IMG/VR virus record: IMGVR_UViG_3300025018_002598
Coordinates: 19,340-83,339 of that record
Length of the DNA: 64,000 bases
Reading direction: 5' to 3' (one strand)
DNA from: a virus
Taxonomy: Duplodnaviria; Caudoviricetes
The notes below the pieces were generated by a model. It was not told where the DNA came from. It did not search any database and saw only the letters and a program-made list of their open reading frames with translations. Both the position numbers and the translations under genes were made by a program. Of the stretch, positions 1-63,893 are shown piece by piece (position 1 is the first letter of the stretch; every line of letters begins with the position of its first letter).

Positions 1-342
1 TGGAGTGAATTTCCAGCCGATACCGATTTGCTGAGAAAACAAACAAATCCTGAAACTGTTGTTTTTGAAAATTCAACAGATACAGGTGGAAGTAGACCTT
101 ACCCTGTTGCGGCCTGTGAGTATTGGTCAATATATGTGTTTGGGGATGGATCTACAGATGTTGATGTTCAAGTATGTATGAATCCCAAATATGAAACTTG
201 GGTAACTCTAAACAGTTCGGCTTTGGGTAATGCTTCGGTTTATGAGGGAAGTGGTGGTCAACATCCTTGGGTAAGAGTTTTAATTAACAATGCGGGTGCA
301 GGTACTTCTGTACACTTATTTAGAAAATATTCAACATATTAA
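1..342 (+). CDS. Hypothetical virion-module protein, 5'-partial
   Basis: The frame is open from base 1 (WSEFPADTD-LLRKQ), in frame with the 28..342 ORF. It is beta-strand-rich and lies upstream of the head genes. Confidence 0.6.
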   Translation, partial: WSEFPADTDLLRKQTNPETVVFENSTDTGGSRPYPVAACEYWSIYVFGDGSTDVDVQVCMNPKYETWVTLNSSALGNASVYEGSGGQHPWVRVLINNAGAGTSVHLFRKYSTY

Positions 343-6600: not shown

Positions 6601-7358
6601 GATCAGACAGAGGAGTTGAACAAATCAAACCTCAAACTGGAAAACATGCTGGATCTGCTGACGATTTTATTGTGACAGCGGGTGAAGACAATAAAGAAAA
6701 AGGCAAAAGAAAAGATGTTTGCCCAGACGACTTCGCTGATAAGCAATGTCCAGGAAAGGGTAAAGATAAATCAAACAAGCCTTACAAGGGTGGTGAGAAA
6801 GTAGAATCTTGTAATGCTGGTTCAGAAAAGAAGAAGGTTCAAGCTCAAACAGCACCTACTCAGCAATTAGAGCCAGTTGACGCAATTGAAGAAGGAAAAG
6901 AAGAGTCTAATGGAGAGAAGTTTGACATTCCAAGAGATAAATCTAAATCAAATCCTGAAATCAATGTAAAGCGTAAAGATGTTACTAGCCCTACAAAGGT
7001 AAGAAATAGTGATTATGGCTTTGGTCAGAAAGCTAAAGATCTTCATACAGAAGTAGTTCCTAGAGACTCCTCTGGTGATGGACTTGGCGGACCTTCTACT
7101 ACATTTGAAGATGAAGTAGCAGAGAATAGAACTTCTGGAAGTCCTGATACATATGTTCAGGAATATCAAAAGCAGAATCAGATCAAGCCAACTCCAGCAG
7201 GTAATGCAGAAAATCACGCCACAGCATCTAAAGAAGTTTGTATTAAGATAGCAAAAGCAAATGACTTAAATGCTAATAGATTAGAAGCAATTAACTTTGG
7301 TTCATTCTATGTTGTTCGTGACCTAGATTCTGGAAGAACATTTAAATATTCAGAATAA
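675..7358 (+). CDS. Prohead protease / scaffold-like polyprotein (2227 aa) with intein
   Basis: The N-terminal domain has phage prohead-protease-like motifs (NDNGDFF, FTNH, GKV, VSMG followed by CxxC...CxH). An intein occupies aa 206-574, followed by low-complexity, Zn-ribbon (CPQC...CASC) and acidic segments. It lies upstream of the scaffold and MCP genes. Confidence 0.8.
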   Translation: MFLKYAKLQILNVASFNKDFEKKSSMEDVVLYSPKTAFIKHDISENLIMAKNALDIVSELEQRDPEEWIVFRSRAIDAGGSEETGEIWHGANDNGDFFSEEELLKSYSSTEDGKEIKSFETFINCPIFTNHQNTDIEKARGKVINAFYDKDNHCVYTDALVDAKAYPELARGIREGYISDVSMGASVKFSDCSICNHRATNEKEYCVVPGTYIETENHTIKPIEDIEIGDKVLTQDGTYQSVLDIHEREIEDEIFEIYASGNNVPLEITGNHEVLTIPKMSYRMTFEQYIQRNDLKPVYKRTDELNIGDFVLYPKENLRKSENPLKSLRFARLLGLFISEGNLFRNKKGEINALEFHLSLEEKDLLEDLLNLIKEFAVREAKVYKKTSTYHIRIWDKDLAEKVVSLCGHGARTKSLSKEIINASGEFKINLLGGIIDGDGWVDPKDYRSVIVTSSDNLSYQIKKISQDLGFSCSIYKTLNTQNETVKYSSGEPNTINHVRFGSHATSIIKQGKCKKLEKLNCQEFEKATSSWIFDNYHVSKIRKISKKYYSGTVMNLAVENNENYIANGMIVHNCSHVKNHKGKKLGGKEVYEINHGIKFIELSAVTDGACDNCTIQNSYTGMEFLDKLKNMISASHSNAVALKKVAMFKGSAGDDIDKLNKSLDLLKGVAETILNSKDVDFEFLEDIGQLLAELQSLIVDLVEAGFANQNPAGETQGEGTQQQAADALTGGEEVPANQGAPPTGDNQSQGLMSPTSPVSLGGKEQNIKTANLLEGLKTQVPEIKKILASINNLKNQITFDGDEEMATSKNIKRKLASNRISEKFSEILESQVSNNEPAIISDGPYSVKIDFNKGIQGFVGNNRVIAMTVEEVGDDLLGLAKVNPSVIGGRLIEKLASKYDENGEVKMSKQAKDLNIKEAFIENPPPVEQVQEGQLEDLSGNFDRKNHPELAEGQIGATTQKQLENVPKSKETGKGDWNRVRPEGTKEDRYVQEIELDRQRPTDYGSERASSGAAKAEGQHSGTQESQLQMSLNYGSERWIDDAAPCDYLPTTEGQFSGKDRKGKAVDEVYEGQLTGHRQGNDSEVSSESFPHTASVEDYIAGKVVTAIKNGLTNLVMEHGISPKTIVNSKIDSKKIASGNRNKILKKAQLAQVDVQNLAENEIIDQIGPNMDLAEDYLDDAIVVLFEDPAELEAELRNYTKERLAKIQEVSDKEDSDETVESKRRKALKEKAFKRNANRVSMPVDAQKLTELFPGVSDFTGLDAKLVKQKFLQSQPGAKLLDFRKVDGGFVAEVELPEQSGEESGNSINSNGVPSPSIPSNNAPSHDSQSAQSAQSDQSVESTVEVAAETVDKLKAFAKQKKEAQSPAGTTMPPPQGGAAGGGAAGDPMGGGGAQDLFGNTPEGAGDVIDETEDDMEDEVGEAKPFGSFNPFTGNENVDVVDGHYRDSDTGLEWEVQMNINVLNPEKIDDIQFKENTDADSELTEGEDINEEIAGQPNAAPMGAPAGGGAAADPMGMGAGPMASYPGWVKDAPLKLAMKASPEYFLNEKMKSDLNIKTASKPVGSICPQCASHKVAFRNSEGNCASCGCKTYVTAKKNKAGSLDVDLYMLPNLKRAEKENRFGGHAVTANVENKEVVEKAIHQILSDRRALVKAASILEKDPMLACISEQSVRGFDSEDSIQICASIKSYLTKQAQFEEEDDEEDDNSEETSSPTVHDSDSEVTDSVEFEDEIDESGDSEGLEEVEEESDTVEDTDDSDLEEVFEDESGEEGDDFSLNLQFTDSDGKSGSINITEDGVDVNGDVFEGAESTDDFGSDIAEDGEEMFEDEMGEEAPEEIEITEIVETEDDDPSSLDGLFSSSVDKLDRETEESEGPSEESEDEFDVMANSLNTSELLRGSRVASSNRSGGSSLDLGFLKAALQSVPTDTGADVPRSEEHGVRDEGGNVHTTKNENSAKKRNSIADTSFNEKGVANGSDRGVEQIKPQTGKHAGSADDFIVTAGEDNKEKGKRKDVCPDDFADKQCPGKGKDKSNKPYKGGEKVESCNAGSEKKKVQAQTAPTQQLEPVDAIEEGKEESNGEKFDIPRDKSKSNPEINVKRKDVTSPTKVRNSDYGFGQKAKDLHTEVVPRDSSGDGLGGPSTTFEDEVAENRTSGSPDTYVQEYQKQNQIKPTPAGNAENHATASKEVCIKIAKANDLNANRLEAINFGSFYVVRDLDSGRTFKYSE
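1290..2396 (+). mobile_element. Intein (369 aa) with LAGLIDADG homing endonuclease in prohead protease
   Basis: Starts CVVPGT..IEDIEIGDKVLT (block A/B) and ends YIANGMIVHN followed by Cys. LAGLIDADG-like motifs LLGLFISEG and LLGGIIDGDG. Confidence 0.93.
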
Positions 7359-7366
7359 TTTAACCG

Positions 7367-7399
7367 GAGAGAGTGGGAATTAATTTTTCCACTCTCTTT
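7367..7399 (+). terminator. Hairpin, probable intrinsic terminator after the protease gene
   Basis: Inverted repeat GAGAGAGTGG...CCACTCTCT just after the stop at 7358. The U-tract is weak. Confidence 0.5.
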
Positions 7400-7426
7400 C
7401 TTATGAAAAAAAAGTAAAAAAAAAGA

Positions 7427-7452
7427 AGGAAAAAAAATTCAAAGCTTTGAAT
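7427..7452 (+). promoter_or_regulatory. Putative SigH-type promoter AGGA-N18-GAAT upstream of scaffold/decoration/MCP operon
   Basis: AGGA at 7427-7430 and GAAT at 7449-7452, in the intergenic gap. Confidence 0.6.
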
Positions 7453-7513
7453 AGAACAATATAATGATTATTCGTGCTTTAATTTACAGTAAATATCAGG
7501 TCGCTCAAGGCAA

Positions 7514-8833
7514 ATGAGGAGTATAGGAATGAATAAAACACAATTATTTTCAGATGGAACCTTTATCACAGCTTCCGATTCTGGTGAAATAAAAAAGGCT
7601 ACAAAGAATGAAGTCGTAGCATTTTTATCTTCACAGTTTCCGGCATCAAAAAGTGGTGCTGAGTTAGAGGGTGTGAGATTCGACAGTGAGTCTGGTTATG
7701 CATATGCAAGATATGCAAATCAAAAAGTTTTCAAGAAGAGAATAGCTCAATCGGCTCCAGTAAATCAAAGTGAGCCTGTTGATTCTTGCGACAGAACTCA
7801 GGAACATGGTGGAAAGAGTGAAAAATTCGACACACCAAGAAATGAGTCTAAATCAAAGCCAGAAAAGTCTGACAGAAAGGATGTTGATAATCCTACAAAA
7901 ATTAGAAATAAGAATTATGAACCTGGAAAAGATAATGTTCATACTGATGAGGTTCCTTGCAGTAAGAGCAATTCGGGTCTAAAGGGCAGTAAGGGAACTA
8001 CTTTTGATGAAGAGAAGTCTCATACTCAAAAAAGTGGAAACCCAGATTCATATGTTCAAGATTTTTCCTCTTCAGAAAAGCCAACTCCAGCAGGTAAAGA
8101 AGGAAACCACGCAGTAGCTAATACAGAAGGTGTTCAAATTAAAAGTTCGTCAGATATGTATGGTTATGAATCTGTAATGGGTGGCAAAGACGAAGATAAA
8201 GAAGGCAAAGGCTTTCCTTTCTTCGGAAAAGGGGACGATGAAGATAAAGAAGACAAAGAAGATAAAGAAGACAAAGAAGATAAAACAGAAAAAGGCGCAG
8301 ACAAAACCGAGAAATCTTCCAAAGATGATAAAAAGGAAGAAGGCGAGAAAAAAGAAAGTAAGGCGGAAAGCCAACTTAGTATAAAGGTATCTGAACTTCA
8401 AGGCAACCTATCTAAGTTAAGTAAAGAACTAGACAAAGGACGTATTCGTGAAGCCCGTCGCAATGCAGCCGTCAAGCTAGTCTTGGCAAAGCGAGACAGA
8501 AATCCAGAGAAGTTCCTTGATGGGGAAGTTTTCTTGGAAGAAGTTAACAAGATCGCAAAGAAAATGAGTGTAGAAGCAATCGAAACAGCAATTGAAGAAA
8601 TCGGTATTATTAGATTACAAGAAGTAGAAAATTCGAAAGCGATCAAAGAAGCTGCTGCTGAACTAAAAGCAGAACCAAACAGAGCAGGCTTAATGCAAAG
8701 CCTTGTTGTCCCACAGGACAATTATAAATTTGCAAGCAAGTCAAATGAATCAAATCTATCAGAAGTTCTGATGGCACATACCAAATTTGGTAAAGATGTA
8801 GAAAAAATGAGAAAGTACCATGAGGAAAATTAA
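7514..8833 (+). CDS. Scaffold-like head protein (439 aa)
   Basis: Lies between the protease and MCP genes, with a charged EDK-repeat linker and a C-terminal coiled-coil-like region. Shares a domain of about 125 aa with the C-terminus of the 2227-aa protein. Confidence 0.6.
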   Translation: MRSIGMNKTQLFSDGTFITASDSGEIKKATKNEVVAFLSSQFPASKSGAELEGVRFDSESGYAYARYANQKVFKKRIAQSAPVNQSEPVDSCDRTQEHGGKSEKFDTPRNESKSKPEKSDRKDVDNPTKIRNKNYEPGKDNVHTDEVPCSKSNSGLKGSKGTTFDEEKSHTQKSGNPDSYVQDFSSSEKPTPAGKEGNHAVANTEGVQIKSSSDMYGYESVMGGKDEDKEGKGFPFFGKGDDEDKEDKEDKEDKEDKTEKGADKTEKSSKDDKKEEGEKKESKAESQLSIKVSELQGNLSKLSKELDKGRIREARRNAAVKLVLAKRDRNPEKFLDGEVFLEEVNKIAKKMSVEAIETAIEEIGIIRLQEVENSKAIKEAAAELKAEPNRAGLMQSLVVPQDNYKFASKSNESNLSEVLMAHTKFGKDVEKMRKYHEEN

Positions 8834-8866
8834 AATGTTTCTCGCTAAATTCGGAGGAAAAAAATT

Positions 8867-9484
8867 ATGTTAATTCCTATTTTTCGTGTAATAGCATCTC
8901 AGTTCCCAGTAGATACACTTACTGGCAATGTTGAGATGGGAATGGCTGTGGGTCTAGTAGAAAATTCTGCTGGAAACGTAGTTATTCGTAAGTCCGACGA
9001 CAACGCTGCTGCGAATACAGCTCAAAACGTCGTTGGAATCGCAGGTGACAGAAAGCGTGCTTCTGAAGCCTATGAGTGGACCAATCGTGTCTCTGACATG
9101 GGTGATGATACTTCTGCCAGCGGTCTTATGACTGTTTATCATGGCGGTGGTGAATTCTGGTTCGACGTTGATGATGGTAACATCACAACTCCACTAAATG
9201 AGTCTACAATTCGTGGACCTATTTCCAGTGCGGCAACAATTACAGTTGGTGGATATCTTTATGTAGCTGACTCTTCTCAATCAAATGAGGAATCTGGTCA
9301 GTTCCATAACTCTGAAAGTACAGCAATCGTTCGCTCCGGCGAAGGTGTTCCTGTCCTTCAGGTTGTTTCTAAGGCATCCAGCATTGAATCCGGTATTCCA
9401 GGTGAATACGAACCAGGTTCTAGCGTGAACTACCCTGATCCATCCGTTCCTAGAACATGGGTTAGAGCAAGAGTTCTAGTCTAA
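8867..9484 (+). CDS. Probable capsid decoration/cementing protein
   Basis: 205-aa beta-rich protein immediately upstream of the MCP, with a GGAGG RBS. Assignment rests on synteny only. Confidence 0.5.
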   Translation: MLIPIFRVIASQFPVDTLTGNVEMGMAVGLVENSAGNVVIRKSDDNAAANTAQNVVGIAGDRKRASEAYEWTNRVSDMGDDTSASGLMTVYHGGGEFWFDVDDGNITTPLNESTIRGPISSAATITVGGYLYVADSSQSNEESGQFHNSESTAIVRSGEGVPVLQVVSKASSIESGIPGEYEPGSSVNYPDPSVPRTWVRARVLV

Positions 9485-9525
9485 TAGCTTGTGTATAGCA
9501 AATTCTTATATAGGGAGACACTAAA

Positions 9526-10392
9526 ATGAGTTTAATCAAGAATACAGCTAATGATGCAGAAAAAGAGTTGCTTATCGCACAGGCTCTTGAAACACCAGAA
9601 GGTCGTGTGGCTTTGGCCCAGGCTATGGTGGAGCCTATCAAGCGAGCACTTGAGTATCAAGCAATCGGTAGAAAGCTTCTAATGGTGGATGAACTTCCAC
9701 AGGGAGCGTTGGCAAGATACGAGAAGGACGTAGCGTCTACAGCTTATGTTGTTTCAAGACGTGGTGGCGTCCGTGACCGTATCGTTGAAGGCGAAGAAGT
9801 GTTGGTTCCAACATTTGAAATCGCAACAAATCCTCAGATTCGTTTGAGTGAAATTAAAGCACGTAGATTTTATATCGTTGACCGTGCGCAGATGAAAGCT
9901 AAAGAAGCTATTCAGAAGCAAGAAGATACCGAAATTCTCGGTGATATTAATGCTGCTGTTCGTTCTGACCAGACTGTAACTCAGTCCGGTGACTTGAGCA
10001 TCGCTTCTCTTAACTATGCTTTCTCTACAATTGAGTCTCACGACTTAACTGTAGCTAAGATCGTTATGCACCCACAGCAGTATGCTGACATCCGTTTGTT
10101 CGGACGTGACGTGTTTGACGAAGCAACAAGACGTGACGTACTTATGTCTGGTCTCTTCGGACACCTTTGGACATCCGACATTCACGTTTCACACAGAGTA
10201 CCACCAGGTTCCGTTTACTTACTAGCTCCGGCTGAGTATGTAGGTGCTATTCCAGTAAGACAGGACATTACTGTTCTTCCTGCTGACGATCCTAAGAACT
10301 TGAGACTTGGATGGGTTATCTTTGAAGAAATCGGTATTGTTGTTATCAACGACTACGCAATCGCAAAGATTAATCTCACAGCAACTAGCTAA
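9526..10392 (+). CDS. Major capsid protein (HK97-fold type, 288 aa)
   Basis: Follows the protease, scaffold and decoration genes, has strongly biased high-expression codon usage, and is followed by a strong terminator. Size and C-terminal beta-strand pattern fit an HK97-type MCP. Confidence 0.85.
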   Translation: MSLIKNTANDAEKELLIAQALETPEGRVALAQAMVEPIKRALEYQAIGRKLLMVDELPQGALARYEKDVASTAYVVSRRGGVRDRIVEGEEVLVPTFEIATNPQIRLSEIKARRFYIVDRAQMKAKEAIQKQEDTEILGDINAAVRSDQTVTQSGDLSIASLNYAFSTIESHDLTVAKIVMHPQQYADIRLFGRDVFDEATRRDVLMSGLFGHLWTSDIHVSHRVPPGSVYLLAPAEYVGAIPVRQDITVLPADDPKNLRLGWVIFEEIGIVVINDYAIAKINLTATS

Positions 10393-10420
10393 TCAGTAGT
10401 TGACAACCACAAACCCAATG

Positions 10421-10450
10421 GGGGCGGGCCGAAAGGCTCGCCCCTTTCTT
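10421..10450 (+). terminator. Intrinsic terminator after MCP
   Basis: GGGGCGGGCC-GAAA-GGCTCGCCCC (10-bp stem, GNRA loop) followed by TTTCTT. Confidence 0.9.
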
Positions 10451-10452
10451 TA

Positions 10453-11430
10453 TTAGTAATATCTGTCAATAAAATTAATGACTTCATTGTCCGTCATTTC
10501 AAAACTAAAATCAATAGATCCATCTCTTACAAATCTTTCAATCTCACGTATCATTCTAGATCTTAAAGATAGTATTTCTGAAATGTATCTATCTTTAGAC
10601 AACAAAGAAGTCTCTTGAGAGAATAGATCGTATATATATTCATTAATTTTAATATAATCTATTTCTTCATTTCCCTTTACTTTTTCTTGAAAATTTTCTA
10701 ATTCACGATCTAAAAAGTCTGACTGTCCAGAAAGTACAGATTCTTTTATTGAATAATTAAGAAAATAAGGTCTCAAAATAGAAGTCCCCCATGAAATATC
10801 TCTAAAGCCATATGATGTAAGATATTCACCTCGACTTATATGAATTACCCTATCTTCTTTCAATGTATTTTTATTAGAAATTACATCTCCAGTCCCATAG
10901 ATATATTCTTTTCTTCCATTTTCCATCTTTTGTTCAACATTGTCTGGAATAAGATTTGAAATAGATAAATATGTTCCTGAACTTAAATATTTATTCATAT
11001 TTGAAGATACAAAATTATCTCCAAATAAAAAATAGTTTCTAGCGAGTTCGACGACTATTTGATTCATCTCAAGCAAGACTTCTTTTTGTCTGTCTGAACC
11101 TTCCATTTTAAACTTGTAGAATTGAAAAGACGACAATCTCTGTATTGTTTCAGAAACTTCAGAGTAGTTTGTATTGTAATATCTACAATAAGTATAGGTC
11201 TCCCTTCGTTTTGTAGGTAATTGCCACTTCATCGCAGCGAGATGCTGAATAAAATGATCTTCCGGCTCTAGATTGGCCGCTTCTTTCTGAGTCCTACTTA
11301 ATCCGTATTCTTTCAATTTATATCTAACGTATCTTGACGTATAATTCAAGATTTCTGATATCTCGTAACTGGATTTCCTCTGTTTGATGTATAGGTCGTA
11401 AAGAATATCTCTATTTATTTGCTTTTTCAT
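10453..11430 (-). CDS. N-terminal HTH fused to truncated/degenerate portal-like domain
   Basis: HTH-like start (LYDLYIKQRKSSYEISEILNYTSRYVRYKLKEYG), then portal-type motifs YFLFGDNFV, LIPDNV, RVIHI and WGTSILRP. Confidence 0.55.
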   Translation of the reverse strand: MKKQINRDILYDLYIKQRKSSYEISEILNYTSRYVRYKLKEYGLSRTQKEAANLEPEDHFIQHLAAMKWQLPTKRRETYTYCRYYNTNYSEVSETIQRLSSFQFYKFKMEGSDRQKEVLLEMNQIVVELARNYFLFGDNFVSSNMNKYLSSGTYLSISNLIPDNVEQKMENGRKEYIYGTGDVISNKNTLKEDRVIHISRGEYLTSYGFRDISWGTSILRPYFLNYSIKESVLSGQSDFLDRELENFQEKVKGNEEIDYIKINEYIYDLFSQETSLLSKDRYISEILSLRSRMIREIERFVRDGSIDFSFEMTDNEVINFIDRYY

Positions 11431-11533
11431 GATGACTACCTCCGTCGAAGTCTAGGAAATGATACAATTTCCTAGTTTGTTTTTTATGGCCATTTGTTGT
11501 CTCGTATCAATTTGAAAAAATAGGAAGATTAAA

Positions 11534-11713
11534 ATGGAAAGAAAAGAAAAAATAAAACTTACGTATGAAATGAGGAACAGAACGGGGCTTTCAATGATTA
11601 TTTGCTATAGAGAGTTAGAGGCGAATGATTGGGATATAGAAAAGGCCAGTAAATGTTATAGGGATCGCACTCTCCGTGAAAAGAGTAAAAGAGGAGATTT
11701 CATCACATGGTAA
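11534..11713 (+). CDS. 59-aa protein resembling the EF-Ts N-terminal (UBA-like) domain
   Basis: My translation is MERKEKIKLTYEMRNRTGLSMIICYRELEANDWDIEKASKCYR..., which follows the EF-Ts pattern VKELRERTGAGMMDCKKALxEANGDIEKA. It is below the ORF-track length cutoff. Confidence 0.7.
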   Translation: MERKEKIKLTYEMRNRTGLSMIICYRELEANDWDIEKASKCYRDRTLREKSKRGDFITW

Positions 11714-12009
11714 CAAAGGATGTTCTTCTGCTAAGTTTATTACAATGGGGAAATCGTCAACTAAGTAGAGTAAACAATCCTCATAGATTTTTAGTCGTAA
11801 TACCTAACGATTTCAATAAAAATGAAATTTTAGAATTTACCAATTCTTACATTCAAGAAACAAGTCAAAAATATTTTATATTAATAAAAGAAAATGAAAT
11901 AAAAGGTAAATATGATATTCATGGACATTCTTGCAATGTTGTATTTTATAAGACTTCTAAATTTGAAGACTTAGAATATGCTAAAAATATTTTTATTCCA
12001 ATGAACTAG
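11707..12009 (+). CDS. Hypothetical protein
   Basis: 100-aa ORF overlapping the previous stop, in a co-directional small-ORF island. Confidence 0.55.
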   Translation: MVTKDVLLLSLLQWGNRQLSRVNNPHRFLVVIPNDFNKNEILEFTNSYIQETSQKYFILIKENEIKGKYDIHGHSCNVVFYKTSKFEDLEYAKNIFIPMN

Positions 12010-12044
12010 GCATGAAGATCTTAATTTTGTAGAGGTACTTTAAA

Positions 12045-12491
12045 GTGGACAAAAAGAAAAGCGTTTGTTGGAATATAGATCTTACTCAAAAACCAATTGA
12101 GCCTAATGAGAAAAGATTAAAAATCAATAAGGCAAAATTTGAATACGAAGGAAAACAATATGAATTCGAAGTTTTAGATGTCGTTCATCTTGGAACTTTA
12201 CCAGAGTGGCAGTTTTCAGATAGAATGTTAGAAACTTGTGGTTTGACTCTATGTATTGTTTTTGATTCGTATTCAAACAACTTTAACGATACGAATTTAG
12301 GTTTGTCAAAAAAGACTTTTACTCTTTGGTTGAGCGGCGATGGAATTTCTTTTCCCGTAGAAGTTCATGGAGGGAATTATAATCGAAAAGATAATCCAGT
12401 TGCAGGTCCAGGAAAATCCTATGATTATGGATATGAAGTAGATACTGATTGTTTTTTTGCATGTTCTTCTCCATGCTATTTCAAGAAATAA
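12045..12491 (+). CDS. Hypothetical protein
   Basis: 148-aa ORF with GTG start and GAGG RBS. Confidence 0.65.
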   Translation: MDKKKSVCWNIDLTQKPIEPNEKRLKINKAKFEYEGKQYEFEVLDVVHLGTLPEWQFSDRMLETCGLTLCIVFDSYSNNFNDTNLGLSKKTFTLWLSGDGISFPVEVHGGNYNRKDNPVAGPGKSYDYGYEVDTDCFFACSSPCYFKK

Positions 12492-12503
12492 AAAGGATTA
12501 TAA

Positions 12504-12830
12504 ATGGACAAATTAGATCAAATAAAAAAAGAATTAAAATATTTAGAATTTGCAAAACATTGTTCTAATGAAAATTTTCCAGCCTATGATCTTTTTGTTA
12601 ATTATTTCTGCGACAGAGATCCTTATAATTCAGATAATGCAAGAAAAGAGATTAGAGATTTAATTCATGAAAAACAAACTTTGATATTAGAAGAGGCCTT
12701 GAAGACCCCAGAGGGAAAAGAAGCCTTATCTAAATATTTTAAAGATGAAGAAGATAAGCGCCTAAAAGATGAAGAAAAAAAAGAAAGTAGTAGATTTTAT
12801 GCTCAGAGAAAAGGAATTGACCTACAATGA
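12504..12830 (+). CDS. Small protein carrying MCP N-terminal motif (ALKTPEGKEAL)
   Basis: LILEEALKTPEGKEAL versus MCP 15-30 LLIAQALETPEGRVAL. Confidence 0.7.
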   Translation: MDKLDQIKKELKYLEFAKHCSNENFPAYDLFVNYFCDRDPYNSDNARKEIRDLIHEKQTLILEEALKTPEGKEALSKYFKDEEDKRLKDEEKKESSRFYAQRKGIDLQ

Positions 12831-12988
12831 TTGATGAAAATGTATTAGATGTTTTTCTAAAAGAAAGAGAAATAAAATCTAAAGAAATGTCCGAAAGAAG
12901 AAAAAAAGAAAGAGTGGTATCCAGCCCATCTCCCATTGCTAATGATAGAGTTAAGGGAAGATTTCCCACTTCAAAAGATGTTGAATAA
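12827..12988 (+). CDS. 53-aa hypothetical protein
   Basis: The ATG overlaps the upstream stop (ATGA). Translation: MIDENVLDVFLKEREIKSKEMSERRKKERVVSSPSPIANDRVKGRFPTSKDVE. Confidence 0.5.
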   Translation: MIDENVLDVFLKEREIKSKEMSERRKKERVVSSPSPIANDRVKGRFPTSKDVE

Positions 12989-13205
12989 AAAATATTCAGA
13001 TTTAACTTCAAGATATTACTGTCCAAATTGTGGCAATAAATTAAAGTATGAAAATTCAGAAGAGGCATTAAGGGAATATAAAGAAGTTGAAGTAAAGTTA
13101 AATGAATACCTTAAACTTCATCATCCTCTTAAAATACGCAGTGATCAAGAATCCTATGAAACGCCAAGGGGCGACGACTCCTTTGCTATATCTTTTGTAG
13201 ATTAA
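12978..13205 (+). CDS. Small CxxC (Zn-ribbon-like) protein
   Basis: Contains YYCPNCG. The ORF track start at 12936 is TTG; the ATG at 12978 is more plausible. Confidence 0.55.
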   Translation: MLNKKYSDLTSRYYCPNCGNKLKYENSEEALREYKEVEVKLNEYLKLHHPLKIRSDQESYETPRGDDSFAISFVD

Positions 13206-13217
13206 GGAAATGTATAA

Positions 13218-13715
13218 ATGGAAGTTATAAAAAAAACAGTTTATAAAACTTCTGACGGAAGAGTTTTTCTAGATATAAATAAGGCAAATTCTCATGAAGA
13301 AACAATAAAACTAATGAAAAGGGATGCGAAAGTCAAAGACTTAGAAAAAAAAGTTAAAGATCTCTTTCCCATTTCGAAAAAAGTCAACTGTGAACAAGAC
13401 AAAGAACTTATGGAATTAACAAAGAAGATTCCTAGTTATTTAGAATATCGAATAGATTTGTATTGTGAATTCACTGGAATTCCTCTAAGGGTATACTCTA
13501 CTAAATTCCATGACAGTGGACATCAGTATGAAAAAAGCTATTCAGAAGATATAGATAGAATTTTAGATAGACCGCATACAATCTTAAGGTTGGGTAACGT
13601 GGTTAGGACATATTCTAAAGAATCTTATAAAAAAGACATTGTTCCTATTTTAGAGAAAAACCATCTAGTCATAAAGAAATATTTGTTTGAGTTCTATACT
13701 GGAGTGTTGAAATGA
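13218..13715 (+). CDS. Hypothetical protein
   Basis: 165-aa ORF with AAGGA RBS. The N-terminal VYKTSDGRVF motif is common in phage small proteins. Confidence 0.65.
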   Translation: MEVIKKTVYKTSDGRVFLDINKANSHEETIKLMKRDAKVKDLEKKVKDLFPISKKVNCEQDKELMELTKKIPSYLEYRIDLYCEFTGIPLRVYSTKFHDSGHQYEKSYSEDIDRILDRPHTILRLGNVVRTYSKESYKKDIVPILEKNHLVIKKYLFEFYTGVLK

Positions 13716-13906
13716 AAAAAGAAGATAAATACGTAGGCGCCATTCCAGTAAGACAGGACATTACTGTGCTTCCAGCAGATAAAGAAGAAGGATTGAAGTT
13801 AGGATGGATAATTTATGAAGAACTTGGCCCAATCCATTTTGCTGAAGTTTTCTGGAAAGATTTTTCTGATGAAGACAAGATAAAGAAAATCAACGAATAT
13901 AGATGA
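13712..13906 (+). CDS. 64-aa protein carrying MCP residues 238-270
   Basis: YVGAIPVRQDITVLPAD (17 aa) is identical to the MCP, followed by LKLGWIIYEELG versus LRLGWVIFEEIG. Confidence 0.85.
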   Translation: MKKEDKYVGAIPVRQDITVLPADKEEGLKLGWIIYEELGPIHFAEVFWKDFSDEDKIKKINEYR

Positions 13907-13912
13907 GACGAA

Positions 13913-14155
13913 ATGAAGCATATAATCAGAAAAGAATTATATGAAACGAAAGAATATACTATTGAAGAAATTCACGAAGAATTATATGAAACGAAAGAAT
14001 ATACTATTGAAGAAATTCACGAAGAATTAAATCGAAGATTAGAGGCGACAAAAGAAAAGGACTTGCCGAGATATTTATCTTACAATAAAGATAAGTTTGA
14101 GTATGATGAAGATGGAAAAATAATAAAAGTAATTAGTTTGAGAGAAGAGGTTTGA
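13913..14155 (+). CDS. Hypothetical protein with 15-aa tandem duplication
   Basis: ELYETKEYTIEEIHE occurs twice. Confidence 0.55.
   Translation: MKHIIRKELYETKEYTIEEIHEELYETKEYTIEEIHEELNRRLEATKEKDLPRYLSYNKDKFEYDEDGKIIKVISLREEV
13932..14029 (+). repeat. Perfect 45-bp tandem repeat (about 2.2 copies)
   Basis: AAGAATTATATGAAACGAAAGAATATACTATTGAAGAAATTCACG at 13932-13976 and 13977-14021, plus a partial third copy. Confidence 0.95.
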
Positions 14156-14601
14156 TTGTGCCAACTTATCCTATAGAATTAGATAGAGGAATTTTTGAAA
14201 TTGCCGTCTCTGATTATGTCGAAAAAAAGATGGATAAAATTGATTTTATTCGCAATTATGTGGTGAGAAGTTTAGAGAATGAAGTGAAAGGAAAAATAGT
14301 AAGAATCTTGTCTGCTCATTTCCACCAAGATCCTATGATGCGTCAAAACATATATAGAATAGAAGTAGATTACATCCATGAAGAAAGATATGGAGATCAT
14401 CTTGGTTCTGTATTTTCTCAGTTATTAGAGAATGGAAGTTATAGAAATCCAGAATATGATGAGCTTAGATTTGAACAACAATATTTTGTGGACTTTCTAC
14501 CTACGACTCCCGTACTAAAGCCTTCGAAAGAAAAAGTAAAAAAAGAAATTACATATACCAAAATAGATTTAGATGATTTTAAATTCATGGAAGTTGAATA
14601 G
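14152..14601 (+). CDS. Hypothetical protein
   Basis: 149-aa ORF whose TTG start overlaps the upstream stop. Confidence 0.6.
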   Translation: MIVPTYPIELDRGIFEIAVSDYVEKKMDKIDFIRNYVVRSLENEVKGKIVRILSAHFHQDPMMRQNIYRIEVDYIHEERYGDHLGSVFSQLLENGSYRNPEYDELRFEQQYFVDFLPTTPVLKPSKEKVKKEITYTKIDLDDFKFMEVE

Positions 14602-14615
14602 GAAAGGAAAAAATA

Positions 14616-15248
14616 ATGGGAATGTATACTGTTGTAATTCACCCTGAAACAAAAGAAGAGATTCAGATAAAGTGTGGTGGAGATTGGTGTGATAAATATG
14701 AAGTGGGAGATGAAGTCCCATTCAAAATACATCCTGATTGTTCTATGATGGCAGATTTTGCTGATGGGATCTATGTTGGGCTTGGCGAAAGAAATGATTT
14801 CAAAAGTTTCAACAGTTACTATGTTGTAATTTGTGAAGGGAAGATTGCAGAGGTTTCCGAAAAATATCACTCTATGGATTCTAGGGCTGGTTATGAAAGA
14901 GAAGAACTTTACAATAAATATAAAGATCGTTTTATAGAACTTGAAAAGTCTTGGTGGAGTGATGAGGCTTGGAAAAAAGACGAAGAACTAAAGAAAGAAC
15001 TTGAGATTAAAAGGAAAGAATATTTAGATAGACATCATCCTAATTATGAAAAATATAGTGATGAAGAGAAATTTACAGCCAATGTAGTACATGCAATGTC
15101 TGCTTCTAGGCTCAATTACCAAGAGATTGGTAAAAAACTTATGTCCATACAAGAACTACCTCAAGGTGCTTTGGCTAGATATGAAAAAGACGTTGCCAGT
15201 GTTCATCATGTTGTAGGGAAGAGGGAAGAAAATGAAAATAAGAATTGA
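14616..15248 (+). CDS. 210-aa protein ending in a copy of MCP residues about 42-79
   Basis: LNYQEIGKKLMSIQELPQGALARYEKDVASVHHVVGKR versus MCP LEYQAIGRKLLMVDELPQGALARYEKDVASTAYVVSRR. Confidence 0.85.
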   Translation: MGMYTVVIHPETKEEIQIKCGGDWCDKYEVGDEVPFKIHPDCSMMADFADGIYVGLGERNDFKSFNSYYVVICEGKIAEVSEKYHSMDSRAGYEREELYNKYKDRFIELEKSWWSDEAWKKDEELKKELEIKRKEYLDRHHPNYEKYSDEEKFTANVVHAMSASRLNYQEIGKKLMSIQELPQGALARYEKDVASVHHVVGKREENENKN

Positions 15249-15429
15249 AATGTGGGAAGATTTTGCATATTCCCTTGGAGAATTGAAAAACGAAACTACA
15301 TCCTTTTGTGCGATTGCTGAAGTCACTGAAGAAGAACATAAAGAGATGCAAAGAATAATGAAAGATTACTATAGTTTACAGGAAAGATTAACAGATCTTT
15401 ATTCAAAATACGAAAAGGAAAAAAAATGA
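15232..15429 (+). CDS. Small hypothetical protein
   Basis: 65-aa ORF coupled to its neighbours. Confidence 0.55.
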   Translation: MKIRIEMWEDFAYSLGELKNETTSFCAIAEVTEEEHKEMQRIMKDYYSLQERLTDLYSKYEKEKK

Positions 15430-15881
15430 GTTTAGAATCAGATAAAAAAAACGAAGAGTTAATTCAATTGGCATTAGAGACAGGAGCGGGAAAGCGAGCA
15501 ATACAAGAGGCTCTTGGCGGATATGAAATGTTTAAAAGAAACTTAGATGATAAGAATAAAAACCTTGTCGAAAGATTAAATGAATCATATTCTAAAATAG
15601 AAAATCAATATGAAGAAATGGGCGACAAAGAGTATATAATTCCATTCGGAGTGAAATGTCTGGTGGAAGCGAGAGACTTTCTATTAAAACATCAGGCTTG
15701 GGAAGCGAAAATGTTGGAAACAGATGAATGCTGGGAAGACTCATTACCAAAATTAAATCAAGAACTATATGATGAATCTTTAGATATTCAGGGAAATAGA
15801 AACCACCTATTAAGTCGTATTGAAATGCAATTAAATATTATAATTAAAAAGAATGAGGAGAAACAAAATGCCAAGTCTTGA
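15426..15881 (+). CDS. 151-aa protein starting with MCP N-terminal-like motif
   Basis: EELIQLALETGAGKRAIQEAL versus MCP 14-34 ELLIAQALETPEGRVALAQAM. Confidence 0.65.
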   Translation: MSLESDKKNEELIQLALETGAGKRAIQEALGGYEMFKRNLDDKNKNLVERLNESYSKIENQYEEMGDKEYIIPFGVKCLVEARDFLLKHQAWEAKMLETDECWEDSLPKLNQELYDESLDIQGNRNHLLSRIEMQLNIIIKKNEEKQNAKS

Positions 15882-16056
15882 TCAACATATAGCAGACTGT
15901 ATAGAAGAGATGGGTAAGGGGCACAGAGAAGTTCATATTTGGTTGGATGAATACTTTAATACTATGGGTCCAAAGCATATCTGATTCATTCTCAAGCAGA
16001 TCGATGGCCTCCTCAAGGGATATTGCCTTTTTGATAAAATACGACCAATTTGACAT
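15844..16056 (-). CDS. Short ORF MSNWSYFIKKAISLEEAIDLLENES..., probably truncated
   Basis: Its ATG overlaps the TGA of 16056..16361 (TGATG). The distal half is antisense to the plus-strand gene at 15868. Confidence 0.4.
   Translation of the reverse strand: MSNWSYFIKKAISLEEAIDLLENESDMLWTHSIKVFIQPNMNFSVPLTHLFYTVCYMLIKTWHFVSPHSF
15868..15984 (+). pseudogene. 38-aa ORF, probably 3'-truncated
   Basis: GAGGAG RBS. Translation MPSLDQHIADCIEEMGKGHREVHIWLDEYFNTMGPKHI* ends abruptly where it meets a convergent gene. Confidence 0.4.
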
Positions 16057-16361
16057 CACACTATATCCGAAACGGGCGTATCCGACCACATCTTACAAGA
16101 CCAGTATTTTGCTTTCCATTTAGGTCCAGGATTGTCACATCCATGACGTGCCCTAAAGTTCTTCTTAGCTTCTGGGTTGTCTCTTCTTATTTCCATATTT
16201 GGATCGCCAAAGTTAACTTTGACAACATTTCCCTTATCGTTTTTCACGAAGACTTTATATTTTTTAACGTCACCCTTTGTGGGTTTGTTTAGTGTAACTT
16301 TTTTACCCTGATATTCAGATTTAGATTCTGAAAACTTCATTAAATTAAATTTCGACATCAA
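16056..16361 (-). CDS. Conserved small basic viral protein (KKYKVFV..VNFGD..FRARHxC...YWSC family)
   Basis: The motif pattern is one I recognise from many large phages. Function unknown. Confidence 0.7.
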   Translation of the reverse strand: MMSKFNLMKFSESKSEYQGKKVTLNKPTKGDVKKYKVFVKNDKGNVVKVNFGDPNMEIRRDNPEAKKNFRARHGCDNPGPKWKAKYWSCKMWSDTPVSDIV

Positions 16362-16369
16362 ATTTCACC

Positions 16370-17572
16370 TCAACCTTGAATTGTTTTTTTTAAGTATTCT
16401 AAATACTTTTTACTAATATTATCCCAACTGTTATCATTACAGAATTTCTTCTGTTTTTCAATTACTTCATTGTAAAATTTTTCATCAGAAAAATACCTAT
16501 CTATAATCTTAGCAATTCCCTCTGGATTATCAGAAGAAGGAACTCCTATTGATTTTAAGTCGTCAAATAGGTGACACTCTCCAACAACAAGGGGAAGTCC
16601 AAAAGACATTGCTATCTTAGAGGCTCCAGAAGATCCTCTAACATCATGATCGGGATGTGTTTTGTAAGGAAGAACACAAACCTTATTTGTCTTAAGAGAC
16701 TCTGCCAAACCTTCGTCACTAATGAAACCTCTTACAATCCCTACATTATCATCGATCTCCAACTCTTCGACTATTTTCTTTAGTTTGTTATAGTATTCAT
16801 CATGGATATTTATATTGTTTTTATTCTCAGAAAAGAAACATGTAAGGTATATTTCTGGATACTTTTCAATCAGTATTTTTATAGATCTTATTGTTGATTC
16901 GAAATTCTTATAGGGAAAACCAAAACCATATTGAATGACAGTATGTTCTGTTTGATATAGATTCCAGTTCTTATCTAAATTCATTTCTGGACAACCATGA
17001 TGAATGACTTCGATAGAATTTGTATATCCCTTTTTTATCAAAAGTTCTTTTGCTTCTTCTGTATGCACAATTACATTTCTCAAAGGGCTTTCACAAAGAA
17101 ACTTATCTTTATGTTCATATACTGAATGCAATGCAACAACATATGGATAGTCTTGAATGAATGTCAATAAGTTATACCAATGAACAACGGTTGGAAATAT
17201 ACCGTATTCATGTTGAACTAATATGGCATCAGGATTAAACTGTTTAATCTCTTTCTTTAGATTTTTGATGGATTCTCTTCTTCTCCAGCAATAAACTACT
17301 TCTATGTCTTTGTAATTTTCTTTAGATGTTTCTGAATCGTTTTTTGTTTTATACTCTGAAAAAATCCTGATATTCTTATTTGTCTTTAGCATAGAGTCAA
17401 CTAGGAATTTAGAATACGTGCTAATTCCACATGACTGGTCCCAATTTGTAATCAAGGCAACTTTGAAATCCTTAAGAGATTTCATTTCTGATGAGTTTTG
17501 AAAGTTCATTGTATTCTCCTGTTCTTTCGAGAAACTGATTAACCTTTTCAGAACGTTCATATTGGACCTCAT
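16370..17572 (-). CDS. Glycosyltransferase, GT-B / GT4 family
   Basis: CGISTYS, ILVQHEYGIF, VEVIHHG, YGFGFPYKNFE and AMSFGLPLV motifs. The true start is probably 17509 or 17485. Confidence 0.85.
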   Translation of the reverse strand: MRSNMNVLKRLISFSKEQENTMNFQNSSEMKSLKDFKVALITNWDQSCGISTYSKFLVDSMLKTNKNIRIFSEYKTKNDSETSKENYKDIEVVYCWRRRESIKNLKKEIKQFNPDAILVQHEYGIFPTVVHWYNLLTFIQDYPYVVALHSVYEHKDKFLCESPLRNVIVHTEEAKELLIKKGYTNSIEVIHHGCPEMNLDKNWNLYQTEHTVIQYGFGFPYKNFESTIRSIKILIEKYPEIYLTCFFSENKNNINIHDEYYNKLKKIVEELEIDDNVGIVRGFISDEGLAESLKTNKVCVLPYKTHPDHDVRGSSGASKIAMSFGLPLVVGECHLFDDLKSIGVPSSDNPEGIAKIIDRYFSDEKFYNEVIEKQKKFCNDNSWDNISKKYLEYLKKTIQG

Positions 17573-18407
17573 TTAAGGATGTCAATATTTTATTTTTACT
17601 AAATTCATAATAATCAATATATGGAATTTCAAAATCTTTGCAAAATCTTTTTAGTTTTGAATGAAATCCTATACATATCGTTGGAATGTTATAGATTATA
17701 CCTAAGACCATTCCATGATATCTCATTGAAATCAAATATTTTGAGTTTTCAATTCTATTGATTATTTCATCTTCATTAGTAACTTCATCGAATTTTCTAT
17801 TTAAAGAATAACTGTTAATATTATGGTAAACATGAGAGTCATTGTGTTGACGTGTTCTTTGTAAAGGGTAAAAGCTTGTAGGTTTTTTGTATTCATCTAA
17901 GAATCTTGAGGTCTCTACACAAAATCTTTGATATTCTTGAAATTTAGATATACTAGAATTATTTCTAGGGACTACATTGGAGTTTGGAATGAAAATAAGA
18001 TCGGTTGGATTTCTTTTTCCATTCAAAACATAAGGTGGATTGAGAAAATTGATGTCTGGTAAAAGAATTACATTATCATGTTCTTCCTTTACAATATCAT
18101 AACTTTCAGAATCTCTTAATATTACTCTTTTTGAATTTGCTAAGAATTTTTTTTCATTAGCATGTGACAATGAGATAGACCAGAATTCAAATGGTCTATC
18201 TACATGCTTTAATACATCTGCCAATTCTCGGTGAAGAATATTTCCTCCACCAACAATAAGGTATTTGTATTTTTGTTCGCTTACTTTTTTTAAATCGAAA
18301 CTAAATTCTAATCTAAGACCATAGAAAAGTTTTTGAAAGGTTTGTTTAAACCATTCATCACCATAATTTCCCTGATTATACCAGCCATAAAAAAGAATGT
18401 CTGTCAT
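17472..18407 (-). CDS. Polysaccharide pyruvyltransferase-family protein
   Basis: GWYNQGNYGDE, LIVGGGN, ILRDSES, LLPD and ISMRYHGMVLG motifs. Confidence 0.85.
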   Translation of the reverse strand: MTDILFYGWYNQGNYGDEWFKQTFQKLFYGLRLEFSFDLKKVSEQKYKYLIVGGGNILHRELADVLKHVDRPFEFWSISLSHANEKKFLANSKRVILRDSESYDIVKEEHDNVILLPDINFLNPPYVLNGKRNPTDLIFIPNSNVVPRNNSSISKFQEYQRFCVETSRFLDEYKKPTSFYPLQRTRQHNDSHVYHNINSYSLNRKFDEVTNEDEIINRIENSKYLISMRYHGMVLGIIYNIPTICIGFHSKLKRFCKDFEIPYIDYYEFSKNKILTSLNEVQYERSEKVNQFLERTGEYNELSKLIRNEIS

Positions 18408-18419
18408 TATTCAAATCCT

Positions 18420-18683
18420 TTACCATCTAGATGTAATGAAAGAAACCTTGATTGGAAGCAAAGATTTTGTTGTAAGAGTAACTCTCTTGTAAGAAATTGA
18501 ATATGATAAAGAAAAATCATTATCAACACAAGAGGTTCCTTCTACATCAACTGACACATACACCTTTGATGGAGTAAATGGAAGTTTTATACTACTCTGT
18601 TGTTCTTCAGAAGAACCTTCTATTCTCACACTACCTAAATAGAAACCTAAAAAATAAGCGAAAAAATTAAATAAACATCTCAT
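18420..18683 (-). CDS. Small hypothetical protein
   Basis: 87 aa with a GGGG/GA RBS, in the same operon as the transferases. Confidence 0.55.
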   Translation of the reverse strand: MRCLFNFFAYFLGFYLGSVRIEGSSEEQQSSIKLPFTPSKVYVSVDVEGTSCVDNDFSLSYSISYKRVTLTTKSLLPIKVSFITSRW

Positions 18684-18719
18684 GGAAATATCCCCCTATG
18701 TAAATGACTCTTCTTCTAC

Positions 18720-18794
18720 TTTCGCAAAATAAAATTACAATTCCTTTTAGAGTTGTCGCTTTCTCGCAAGGAACATCGTATTTTTTTTTAGAAA
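18720..18794. promoter_or_regulatory. Divergent pair of putative SigH-type promoters
   Basis: Minus strand: AGGA(18745-42)-N18-GAAA(18723-20). Plus strand: AGGA(18769-72)-N18-GAAA(18791-94). Confidence 0.5.
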
Positions 18795-18823
18795 ACAATA
18801 TAAGTTGAAGGTGGAGAAAAGAA

Positions 18824-19399
18824 ATGGCTCAATTGCTTAAAAGAATAGTAGTTTCACAGAGAAGTAATGTCTTAATAGAGGACTTAGGAGTTTTCTTTAG
18901 AAATAGAGGAGACTCCAGAGATTTATTGGGAAACACTCTTCCTGGAAAAAACTATACAAAATTTAGCTTAGAAAAAATATGCTCTTCTCGATCTTTAGAT
19001 AGTTTGGTCAAGTCTGGTCATCTAAAGATATTTGACGAAAACGGAACGGAACTAAGTAGTGTCTCTGGAGGTTCTGGAGAACGTTCTACAAATTTAGCAA
19101 CGCTAAAAGACTTAGACGATTTACCTACGGGAAATGATCTTGGATATACAAATTATAGTTTCGTTGGTGATGGAGGGACGACATATTCAGTAAGGGACAT
19201 ATCTGGAATTTCGTCTATAAGATTCAAATCTAACTCTACTATTATCTATTTAAATGGACTTCCAATTTCAAGAGGCGTAGATTATGAAGAAGATGGAAAT
19301 CTTTATGAATTTTCACTCATAGACATTGGTTCCTCTGGACTTCCTGCCATACCTAACTCTCAGGACCAGTTTACGATAATCTTCAACAGAATACAATAG
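18824..19399 (+). CDS. Hypothetical protein, possibly structural
   Basis: 191 aa with a GGAG RBS and a beta-rich C-terminal half. Confidence 0.65.
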   Translation: MAQLLKRIVVSQRSNVLIEDLGVFFRNRGDSRDLLGNTLPGKNYTKFSLEKICSSRSLDSLVKSGHLKIFDENGTELSSVSGGSGERSTNLATLKDLDDLPTGNDLGYTNYSFVGDGGTTYSVRDISGISSIRFKSNSTIIYLNGLPISRGVDYEEDGNLYEFSLIDIGSSGLPAIPNSQDQFTIIFNRIQ

Positions 19400-61718: not shown

Positions 61719-61783
61719 GATTAACTCCTAAGTCATATTTTTTTATAGTTTTTTCTGTGTCTGGGATTGTCAAGTTATAGATT

Positions 61784-61890: not shown

Positions 61891-62022
61891 TCTCCACAGA
61901 CTTTAATTTCCGTAGAACTTACGGTATTTTTCTGACTTTTACTACAAAATTTTAAACAAATATTTTATTCTTGGTTATCGAATTTAGTATTTATTTTTAT
62001 ATTTTTGTAGATTTTCAGTCAA

Positions 62023-63860: not shown

Positions 63861-63893
63861 TGAAACTTCAGATAAAAAATGAGATTAGATAAA

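Follow-up and report, generated by a model that had tools for sequence, protein, structure and literature searches.

A widespread phage accessory protein family with a C-terminal module resembling the N-arm of the major capsid protein

The stretch of viral DNA described here (the window, 64,000 nucleotides) is the right-hand 64 kb of the 83,339-bp IMG/VR virus record IMGVR_UViG_3300025018_002598, which is rated 95% complete and has a G+C content of 34%. Its p210 gene (14616..15248, + strand; 210 codons plus stop) encodes a protein that ends in a segment similar to the major capsid protein (MCP) of the same phage. p210 truly belongs to a family of phage accessory proteins that is widespread and unannotated. 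Its members begin with a beta domain, continue with a helical linker that contains a WSEEAW motif, and end in a module of approximately 35 residues homologous to residues ~29-63 of phage-G-type MCPs, which comprise the N-arm helix and the strand ahead of the E-loop. The capsid-like tail is an old and conserved element of this family and not a chance fusion. The best explanation, which we judge to have about an even chance of being correct, is that the tail would act as a mimic of the capsid N-arm, making the protein a candidate competitor or tether, and that the tail of p210 itself became chimeric by recombination with an MCP gene.

Similarity of p210 to the major capsid protein

The MCP gene (9526..10392, + strand) is intron-less in this phage and encodes a 288-residue protein with the HK97 fold, of the phage G type. 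It matches phrog_2522 (major head protein; E 2.7e-70), the NCBIfam model NF042927 'HK97-fold major capsid protein' (E 1e-58), and gp27 of Bacillus phage G (PDB 6WKK; E 2.4e-96), to which it is 53.5% identical. A tblastn search of the window with the MCP aligns MCP residues 42-79 without gaps to p210 residues 166-203 (15111-15224), with 26 of the 38 residues identical (E 1.9e-11). Within this segment is a core, ELPQGALARYEKDVAS, in which all 16 residues are identical in p210 and its own MCP and 12 of the 16 codons are different, every change being synonymous (35/48 nucleotides identical). Over the full 38 codons 8 are identical and 18 are synonymous but different, and the tail and the MCP gene share 69/114 nucleotides (60%). 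A profile of 80 related MCPs, run against all six frames of the complete 83-kb genome, finds the p210 open reading frame (ORF) with an E-value of 1.1e-13, and phrog_2522 matches p210 residues 154-203, such that the similarity reaches back to residue 154. The match is far above chance.

p210 is not a capsid protein. Its residues ~153-203 are homologous to MCP residues 29-79, but it holds only about 50 of the 288 MCP residues and lacks the A-domain, the spine helix and the C-terminal P-domain strands, and the capsid piece is here the C-terminus of another fold. Coverage of the MCP models is partial (MCP profile positions 40-80; phrog_2522 positions 61-111), and p210 has no match in NCBIfam. In HK97-fold MCPs the N-arm and E-loop part makes contacts between subunits and with the scaffold.

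The original prediction, made from the window sequence by itself, had reported the 38-residue match together with its identical core and silent codon differences, all of which we recover, and had argued that the ORF is not a read-through of the misassembly type. We agree, as the tail is truly MCP-derived, is in frame, and belongs to a real gene. A chimeric contig in which MCP reads were joined to another gene is so improbable as to be negligible, because a tail only 60% identical in nucleotides to the MCP gene does not come from MCP reads, the family profile described below matches through the tail, and the identical p210 protein is on record in 2 contigs. The gene is single-copy in the 83-kb genome, and its start is confirmed by homology, with an MGM[FY]T opening common to p210 and family members.

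A family of accessory proteins with capsid-like tails

A word-based search with the whole of p210 finds only 288-residue MCPs that match the tail and no relative of the N-terminal part, giving the wrong impression that p210 is an orphan gene. An exhaustive HMMER search (phmmer) using p210 residues 1-153 as the query finds a family: 123 cluster representatives have E ≤ 1e-3, and 14 of them E ≤ 1e-10. Nearly all of these homologues align from their own first residue, and they are usually 160-190 residues long (about 170). A family hidden Markov model (HMM) built without p210 matches it with an E-value of 5.6e-46 over HMM positions 1-170 of 171, and the match thus runs through the tail. The fusion partner that had been described as unrelated is therefore nothing of the kind: its 150 N-terminal residues place it in a family with no fewer than 123 cluster representatives, in which the tail module is general.

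The organization of the protein can be seen from a family alignment (A2) and an AlphaFold2 (AF2) model. The N-terminal beta-rich domain (residues 1-85; 14616..14870, + strand) is the best-conserved part of the family, with its MGM[FY]T start and with Q17 and D23 invariant. It is followed by a helical linker (residues 86-148; 14871..15059, + strand) containing the family WS(D/E)EAW motif; a 16-residue motif of the linker, KELEIKRKEYLDRHHP, is also present in the neighbouring ORF at 12936-13205 (62.5% identity over 16 residues, E 0.02). The family-type tail (residues 149-182; 15060..15161, + strand) is homologous to MCP residues ~27-58, corresponding to the N-arm helix plus the first strand, and fits the family profile and not the MCP profile.

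Of the 59 aligned members, 93% have the tail module (p210 residues 149-183), whose degree of conservation is close to that of the linker. Profile-profile comparison with an alignment of 36 MCPs (hhalign) pairs family columns 140-174 with MCP residues 29-63 at 94.8% probability (E 5.2e-8). An MCP HMM matches 15 of the 123 family sequences at E < 1e-3 and approximately 30 more weakly, and every match maps the C-terminal 30-60 residues to MCP residues ~10-68. In the reverse direction, a search of 45 related phage records with the family HMM matches the N-terminus of the MCP gene in 45/45, and nothing else. Tails such as ...RLNYQEIAKKLIHVEELP (P0103), ...NYQAVGRKLLMMQN (P0136) and ...VDYHSLAQKAFIVEPMPEGALDYYEKEDK (P0125) illustrate the resemblance to MCP residues 29-66 (ALAQAMVEPIKRALEYQAIGRKLLMVDELPQGALARYE). 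Because nearly all of the aligned members carry the module resembling the MCP N-arm, the architecture is old and family-wide, and this conservation supports selection on the tail module, for residues ~149-183 only. The residues that had been stressed in the original prediction (QGALARYEKDVAS...) are mostly in an extension present in no more than about one fifth of the aligned members.

Some members depart from the usual arrangement. A metagenomic contig (L174, 8785-9798) carries two tandem paralogues of the family, of 173 and 164 residues, and the tails of P0223 and P0178 each contain two MCP-like modules.

The family is not covered by any model in Pfam, PHROGs, NCBIfam or PADLOC. Scans of viral contigs with p210, P0136 and P0159 yield almost nothing, and a tblastn search of 50,697 cultured phage records with P0109 gives no match.

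Silent codon differences do not report selection on the copy

The 12 silent differences in the core had been taken as a sign of purifying selection on the copied segment, and here the control comparison gives a different answer. We compared the MCP orthologues of the five closest relatives (74-93% protein identity), and among these true MCP genes 7-15 of the 16 core codons are different, with 0-1 amino acid changes. The MCP gene of this phage differs from that of L006 at 13/16 core codons and from that of L007 at 12/16, with no replacement in either, and the p210 core is nearer to the L007 MCP gene (7/16 codons different, 38/48 nucleotides identical) than to its own. Over the 38-codon segment this MCP and that of L005 have identical peptides and differ at 23/114 nucleotides (proportion of silent differences, pS, 0.69), and silent sites in the segment are saturated even between these two genes. 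A copy of the MCP gene of any member of the clade would therefore give the same pattern without selection. The lesson for method is that, where the orthologues are themselves silently saturated, silent differences between paralogous segments do not testify to selection.

It is very improbable that an MCP fragment was recently joined to an unrelated protein in this lineage alone, with the silent divergence as proof of purifying selection on the fusion. Such an origin would accommodate the identity of 26/38 residues, the core with its silent changes, and the absence of an N-terminal relative in the word-based search, but the exhaustive search found a family in which the tail module is general, and the MCP orthologues show equal silent divergence.

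The tail of p210 is a chimera

A finer comparison was made by scoring each p210 residue twice, once against the MCP columns and once against the family columns without p210. For residues 153-182 the log-odds are +34.3 bits for the family and -17.2 for the MCP; for residues 183-204 they are +10.2 for the family, where few family sequences contribute, and +54.4 for the MCP. The p210 tail is a chimera, which is family-type to ...IQELP and MCP-type from QGALARYEKDVASVHHVVGKR, with the switch at MCP codon 57/58. The differences from the MCP in the N-terminal flank (N167, E170, K173, M176, S177, I178 and Q179) are at positions invariant in 80 MCPs and are the family's own residues, as seen by comparison with RLNYQEIAKKL in P0103. 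With 12 of 38 positions different, 16 or more identical residues in a row have a probability of 0.003, and the replacements are clustered non-randomly because these flanking residues are those of the family.

The MCP-type extension (residues 183-203; 15162..15224, + strand) corresponds to MCP residues 59-79, contains most of the 16/16 core, and is near-unique to p210 as judged by log-odds and occupancy. Its occupancy in the family is approximately 19%: among the 59 members, 16-19 reach residues 185-187, 8-10 have YEK, and just one has VAS, and beyond residue 192 the extension is unique to p210. It bears the states of the MCP clade of this phage, YEKDVAS and then V..VVG.R as in L007 and L008. 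The tail of P0223, ...VDELPESALPVYDKD, has ALPVYDKD as in the phage G MCP, and not the ARYE(K/R)D of most MCPs, which hints that tails may follow the MCP of their own phage.

The position of the switch is shared with an interruption of MCP genes. In L092, a syntenic relative, the MCP gene is in four exons (residues 1-57, 57-212, 213-247 and 248-288; 6010-11325) with HNH and LAGLIDADG genes between them. At least two of these interruptions match the Rfam group I intron model (10586-10764, 50.3 bits; 10959-11194, 44.2 bits), and the gap between the exons for residues 1-57 and 57-212 has no Rfam match. Database proteins that end in ...MVDEL plus 2-3 residues, or that start with ELPQGALARYE, represent the same interruption in other phages, and many short database 'proteins' are such MCP exons. 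The family-to-MCP switch in p210, between ELP and QGA, coincides with the codon 57/58 exon boundary of the L092 MCP gene, a coincidence to be read with the caution that introns and detectable fragments alike favour the most conserved blocks.

We propose that recombination with a close relative's MCP gene would have replaced the 3' part of the tail or added to it, with the exchange using the homology between tail and MCP. The trigger was possibly the conserved, break-prone site between ELP and QGA, which is a site of group I intron insertion in the MCP genes of relatives. In this way the mimic in p210 would have been lengthened, and its silent codon divergence would have been inherited from the divergence among MCP genes.

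Other origins were considered and rejected. A decayed second MCP copy, or a set of old exons, does not fit pieces that are not collinear with the MCP and that span exon boundaries instead of ending at them, and a spare repair template for the MCP gene does not fit flanks with approximately 60% nucleotide identity and replacements at MCP-invariant positions. A recent copy of a sampled MCP gene is likewise rejected, the best core identity among them being 41/48 nucleotides. We also note an ORF in L008 (11896-12306; MLTYQEIAKMLL...ELP) that is situated behind a LAGLIDADG gene and resembles the family tail, for which E ≤ 1 was not reached with the family HMM.

Other capsid protein segments in this genome and its relatives

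p210 is not the only gene in its block with similarity to the MCP. p64 (13712..13906, + strand) encodes a 64-residue protein consisting of MCP residues 237-270 plus an acidic tail (tblastn E 1.4e-12; MCP HMM E 4.1e-15), with 25/34 residues identical and a core of 17/17. It is two genes upstream of p210 and its start overlaps the preceding stop codon, and its core (YVGAIPVRQD directly followed by ITVLPAD) spans the residue-247 intron site of related MCP genes. The N-terminus of p151 (15426..15881, + strand) is weakly like MCP residues 1-43 and has the MSL... start of the MCP; it ranks third in the genome with the MCP HMM (E 0.19), has a tblastn identity of 40% over 37 residues, and matches phrog_20721 (unknown function; E 6e-4). 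The fourth-ranking match is p108 (12504..12830, + strand; MCP HMM E 0.75), of which residues 57-77 are weakly like MCP residues 12-32 (tblastn 43% over 21 residues) and which has a weak match to phrog_29458 (unknown function). The four genes p108, p64, p210 and p151 share the same strand and one 3.4-kb block. None of the PADLOC defence models is matched by p210, p64, p108 or five neighbours, and p151 has a marginal DndC match (E 0.0098).

A search of 45 related records with the MCP for ectopic pieces shows that such segments recur. G012, a 476-kb phage, has a 137-residue ORF with MCP residues 13-78 and a 230-residue 'mini-MCP' (L127, 2805-3497) with a signal-like start, in which MCP residues 49-116 are joined to 244-274 without the A-domain. 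G010 has a stand-alone 72-residue N-arm ORF with MCP residues 9-39 (L128, 2922-3140), G020 a 67-residue ORF with MCP residues 240-284, G026 a 108-residue ORF with MCP residues 30-61, and L008 two MCP pieces. The 10 ectopic pieces contain only N-arm, E-loop and P-domain parts and none (0/10) is from MCP residues ~125-235, an absence to which detection bias toward conserved blocks could contribute. Ectopic pieces directly adjoin endonuclease genes in L008 (LAGLIDADG_2, E 1e-20) and L093 (HNH, E 5e-7), and likewise in L129 (helix-turn-helix plus LAGLIDADG_3, E 6e-4).

A pair of genes is shared by L093 (6001-6769) and L131 (91-906), both starting with a twin-arginine-like leader (MNRRDFLK...), which is followed by MCP residues 13-69 in the first and by MCP residues 245-282 in the second. 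Between the two contigs the Nei-Gojobori rates of replacement and silent substitution (dN/dS) are 0.134/0.88 in the first gene and 0.27/1.49 in the other, giving ratios of 0.15-0.18, and these rates show that genes for capsid pieces can be under purifying selection as such. The gene between the two members of the pair is unrelated in the two contigs; the middle gene of L131 carries MCP residues 179-234, such that three collinear pieces are present in a row. These leader-plus-capsid-piece mini-proteins use the same two MCP regions as p210 and p64, in neighbouring small genes, but have a different partner domain, without homology to the N-terminal domain of p210; because this partner is a signal-like leader, they probably act in a different compartment from p210.

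The pairing of p64 with p210 is mirrored in L136, where two genes on from the family member P0125 is a 143-residue protein (7033-7464) that starts with MCP residues 228-270 (E 8e-8). In HK97-fold proteins a single P-domain sheet contains both the C-proximal hairpin and the strand that precedes the E-loop, and the N-arm and C-proximal pieces might pair.

The recurrence of capsid pieces near endonuclease genes can also be read neutrally. The family tail would then be functional, and the p210 extension (residues 183-203) would be debris of recombination or endonuclease repair in a block that serves as a dumping ground. The presence of the extension in few members and its uniqueness beyond residue 192 agree with this, as do the coincidence of its junction with an intron or endonuclease site, the homing endonuclease genes adjoining MCP pieces in L008, L093 and L129, and a silent codon pattern that requires no selection on the copy. 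Against such a by-product are 16/21 extension residues that match the MCPs of the clade, a frame kept to within 7 codons of the stop, the purifying selection on the L093 and L131 genes, and the restriction of the 10 pieces to the N-arm, E-loop and P-domain, with the bias in detection mentioned above. We consider this neutral reading of the extension rather unlikely.

Predicted structure of p210

AF2 run on the family alignment gives a model with a mean predicted local distance difference test score (pLDDT) of 89.8 and a predicted template modelling score (pTM) of 0.72; from the single sequence the pLDDT is 39.9. The model has strands in a beta domain at residues 5-82 and helices at 91-105 and 116-140. 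The first helix of the tail (149-163) packs into the helical part with pLDDT >90, the stretch 176-184 is an exposed coil, and the final helix is of falling confidence. By analogy with the HK97 fold, the MCP counterpart of residues 176-184 would be a strand.

The model appears to have no clear match among solved or predicted viral structures. Foldseek finds nothing in the PDB at E ≤ 0.001, VIA-align wide gives a best Z of 4.5 for the helical part only, and the best match in BFVD (E 4.7e-3) is to uncharacterised phage proteins. The ESM Atlas provides no lead for p210.

Genomic context and possible roles

Where the surroundings of family genes could be compared, they are non-structural. Members are found in arrays of small ORFs near ClpP and SIR2 genes (L134), with nicotinamide adenine dinucleotide (NAD) salvage genes (L170), with methylase and repair genes (L180), and in a replication cluster of a phage of 357-511 kb, on at least 24 contigs (L181). 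There is no MCP within 10 kb on either side of the family member in L134, L136, L168-L171 and L174-L181.

The gene for p210 is itself only 4.2 kb downstream of the head genes, and a direct role in the capsid has to be considered, in which the tail would take up a position in the procapsid or capsid lattice, either next to an N-arm or E-loop strand of the MCP or as a substitute for it, with the beta domain displayed on the virion or packaged inside it and p210 serving as a minor capsid, cargo or decoration protein. In the original prediction this was the first of two suggested roles, both plausible, the other being competition for capsid-binding factors. The tail copies the part of the MCP that contacts other subunits and scaffold, as mapped through phage G gp27 (6WKK), and p64, with the other half of the P-domain, is two genes away in a pairing that recurs in L136. 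At five other loci, in contrast, the genes around the family member are of a small early type or concern replication, NAD salvage or a methylase, and are not head genes; none of the 45 relatives that share this capsid type has a detectable family member, and the family therefore is not a needed capsid part; and AF2 packs the first tail helix into the helical bundle of p210 itself. Docking on the capsid is in our view unlikely.

The explanation that we prefer is that the tail would mimic the MCP N-arm, enabling p210 to bind whatever usually binds that arm. This could be the scaffolding protein, an adjacent MCP subunit or a chaperone; it could also be a factor through which the host or a rival recognises the MCP. 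p210 would either compete with the MCP for this partner or tether its own beta domain to it. We favour a cytoplasmic competitor or decoy over a structural role in the virion, because the members are mostly among early or replication-type genes.

Several observations weigh against this explanation or parts of it. No family member is detectable in 45 phages that have this type of MCP, six of them at least 90% complete. The family is therefore not a regular companion of this capsid type, and p210 is an accessory gene and not part of the capsid. The suggestive co-variation of tail and capsid comes from p210 and one further tail, that of P0223. As regards recombination, an Rfam search finds no intron remnant in 9000-17000, no nuclease domain is recognisable in the neighbours of p210 or in the gene at 10453-11430, and no sampled MCP gene is a close nucleotide donor. 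Extension to about MCP residue 67 is also seen in a minority of family members (P0125, P0178 and P0223), and part of the extension may thus be ancestral and not recombined.

A broader and more speculative scenario, which we think improbable as a whole, is that this capsid lineage keeps a toolkit of capsid mimics, comprising the p210 family with its N-arm mimic, hairpin mimics of the P-domain like p64, and the leader-tagged versions. These would be matched to their own capsid by recombination at intron and endonuclease hot spots and would serve as decoys or competitive inhibitors against factors that recognise the best-conserved epitopes of the capsid, for example host immune sensors or the assembly machinery of rival phages, with the pieces that are side by side in three independent loci pairing as a P-domain-like surface.

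Organization of the head genes and the accessory block

The head module on the + strand has the order giant protein (2,227 residues, 675-7358), acidic protein (439 residues, 7514-8833), a 205-residue protein labelled as a decoration protein (8867-9484), and MCP. The acidic protein is probably the scaffold; it and the giant protein have in common a domain of 148 residues (44.6% identity, E 4e-26). The MCP gene ends with a strong GC-rich hairpin terminator (10420..10445, + strand; 11-bp stem with 9 GC pairs, followed by a T-run), downstream of which the accessory block containing p210 begins. The next gene (10453-11430, - strand) encodes a 325-residue protein, and from approximately 11.5 to 16 kb there are about 14 small + strand ORFs, closely packed and many of them overlapping, p210 among them. 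In 80 related viral contigs the 10-kb surroundings of the MCP contain no relatives of the ORFs of this block.

We note several other features of the genome. The portal gene (genome coordinates 14388-19253, L173; phrog_16240, E 6e-27) has an in-frame insertion of 1,308 nucleotides with a LAGLIDADG domain inside, which is intein-like, and also a C-terminal DUF559 endonuclease-like domain. The 325-residue protein has a helix-turn-helix start and then a weak alignment with the portal protein across the insertion site (E 0.009 and 0.075). Genome positions 16-141 (- strand) and window positions 61732-61854 (+ strand) form an inverted coding repeat of 31 residues, 100% identical, and window positions 63725-64000 and 61714-61902 share a repeated coding stretch of 40 residues, 85% identical; these repeats near the genome ends may be terminal or sub-terminal repeats.

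Relation to known systems

The MCP is a target of many bacterial defence systems and phage satellites. One parallel in the proposed mode of action is CpmB of the Staphylococcus aureus pathogenicity islands (SaPI), a satellite scaffold that mimics the C-terminus of the helper phage scaffold and binds the N-arm of the capsid protein. The proposed action of p210 is like that of CpmB in that one partner at the interface of N-arm and scaffold would be mimicked for competition in capsid assembly, but CpmB mimics the scaffold side and p210 would mimic the capsid side, the two are not related in sequence or fold, and p210 is encoded by the phage itself.

A parallel in gene construction is found in Bodo saltans virus, in which ORFs with ankyrin repeats are headed by fragments of essential viral genes and a decoy role has been proposed, and in which essential genes hold introns and inteins encoding homing endonucleases (Deeg et al. 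2018, PMC5871332). In both cases accessory genes of a large virus contain in-frame fragments of the virus's own essential proteins. Bodo saltans virus differs in being a eukaryotic giant virus, with pieces of catalytic domains located N-terminal to ankyrin repeats in a recently expanded array, whereas p210 belongs to a single-copy phage family with a deeply conserved C-terminal module from the capsid N-arm, and Pfam finds no ankyrin or other repeat in it. A decoy function is a proposal in both cases.

The proteins Tab and Tai may offer a model for how p210 works. Both are small accessory proteins, encoded in prophages, in phage-inducible islands or in defence loci of bacteria, and they are reported to engage the structural proteins of invading phages and so to affect the assembly of their virions (PMC10884400, PMC11364771). 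They target tail assembly, and the abstracts do not describe them as copies of their target. Our literature search found no paper describing capsid-piece proteins in phages.

A family that carries a copy of the capsid N-arm would be a ready-made probe for factors that bind this arm. If the role as decoy or competitor is true, mimicry of structural proteins would be added to the counter-measures of phages or to the weapons that phages use against each other. The p210 case also illustrates concretely how a capsid gene with hot spots for introns and endonucleases may become a source of coding pieces for accessory genes.

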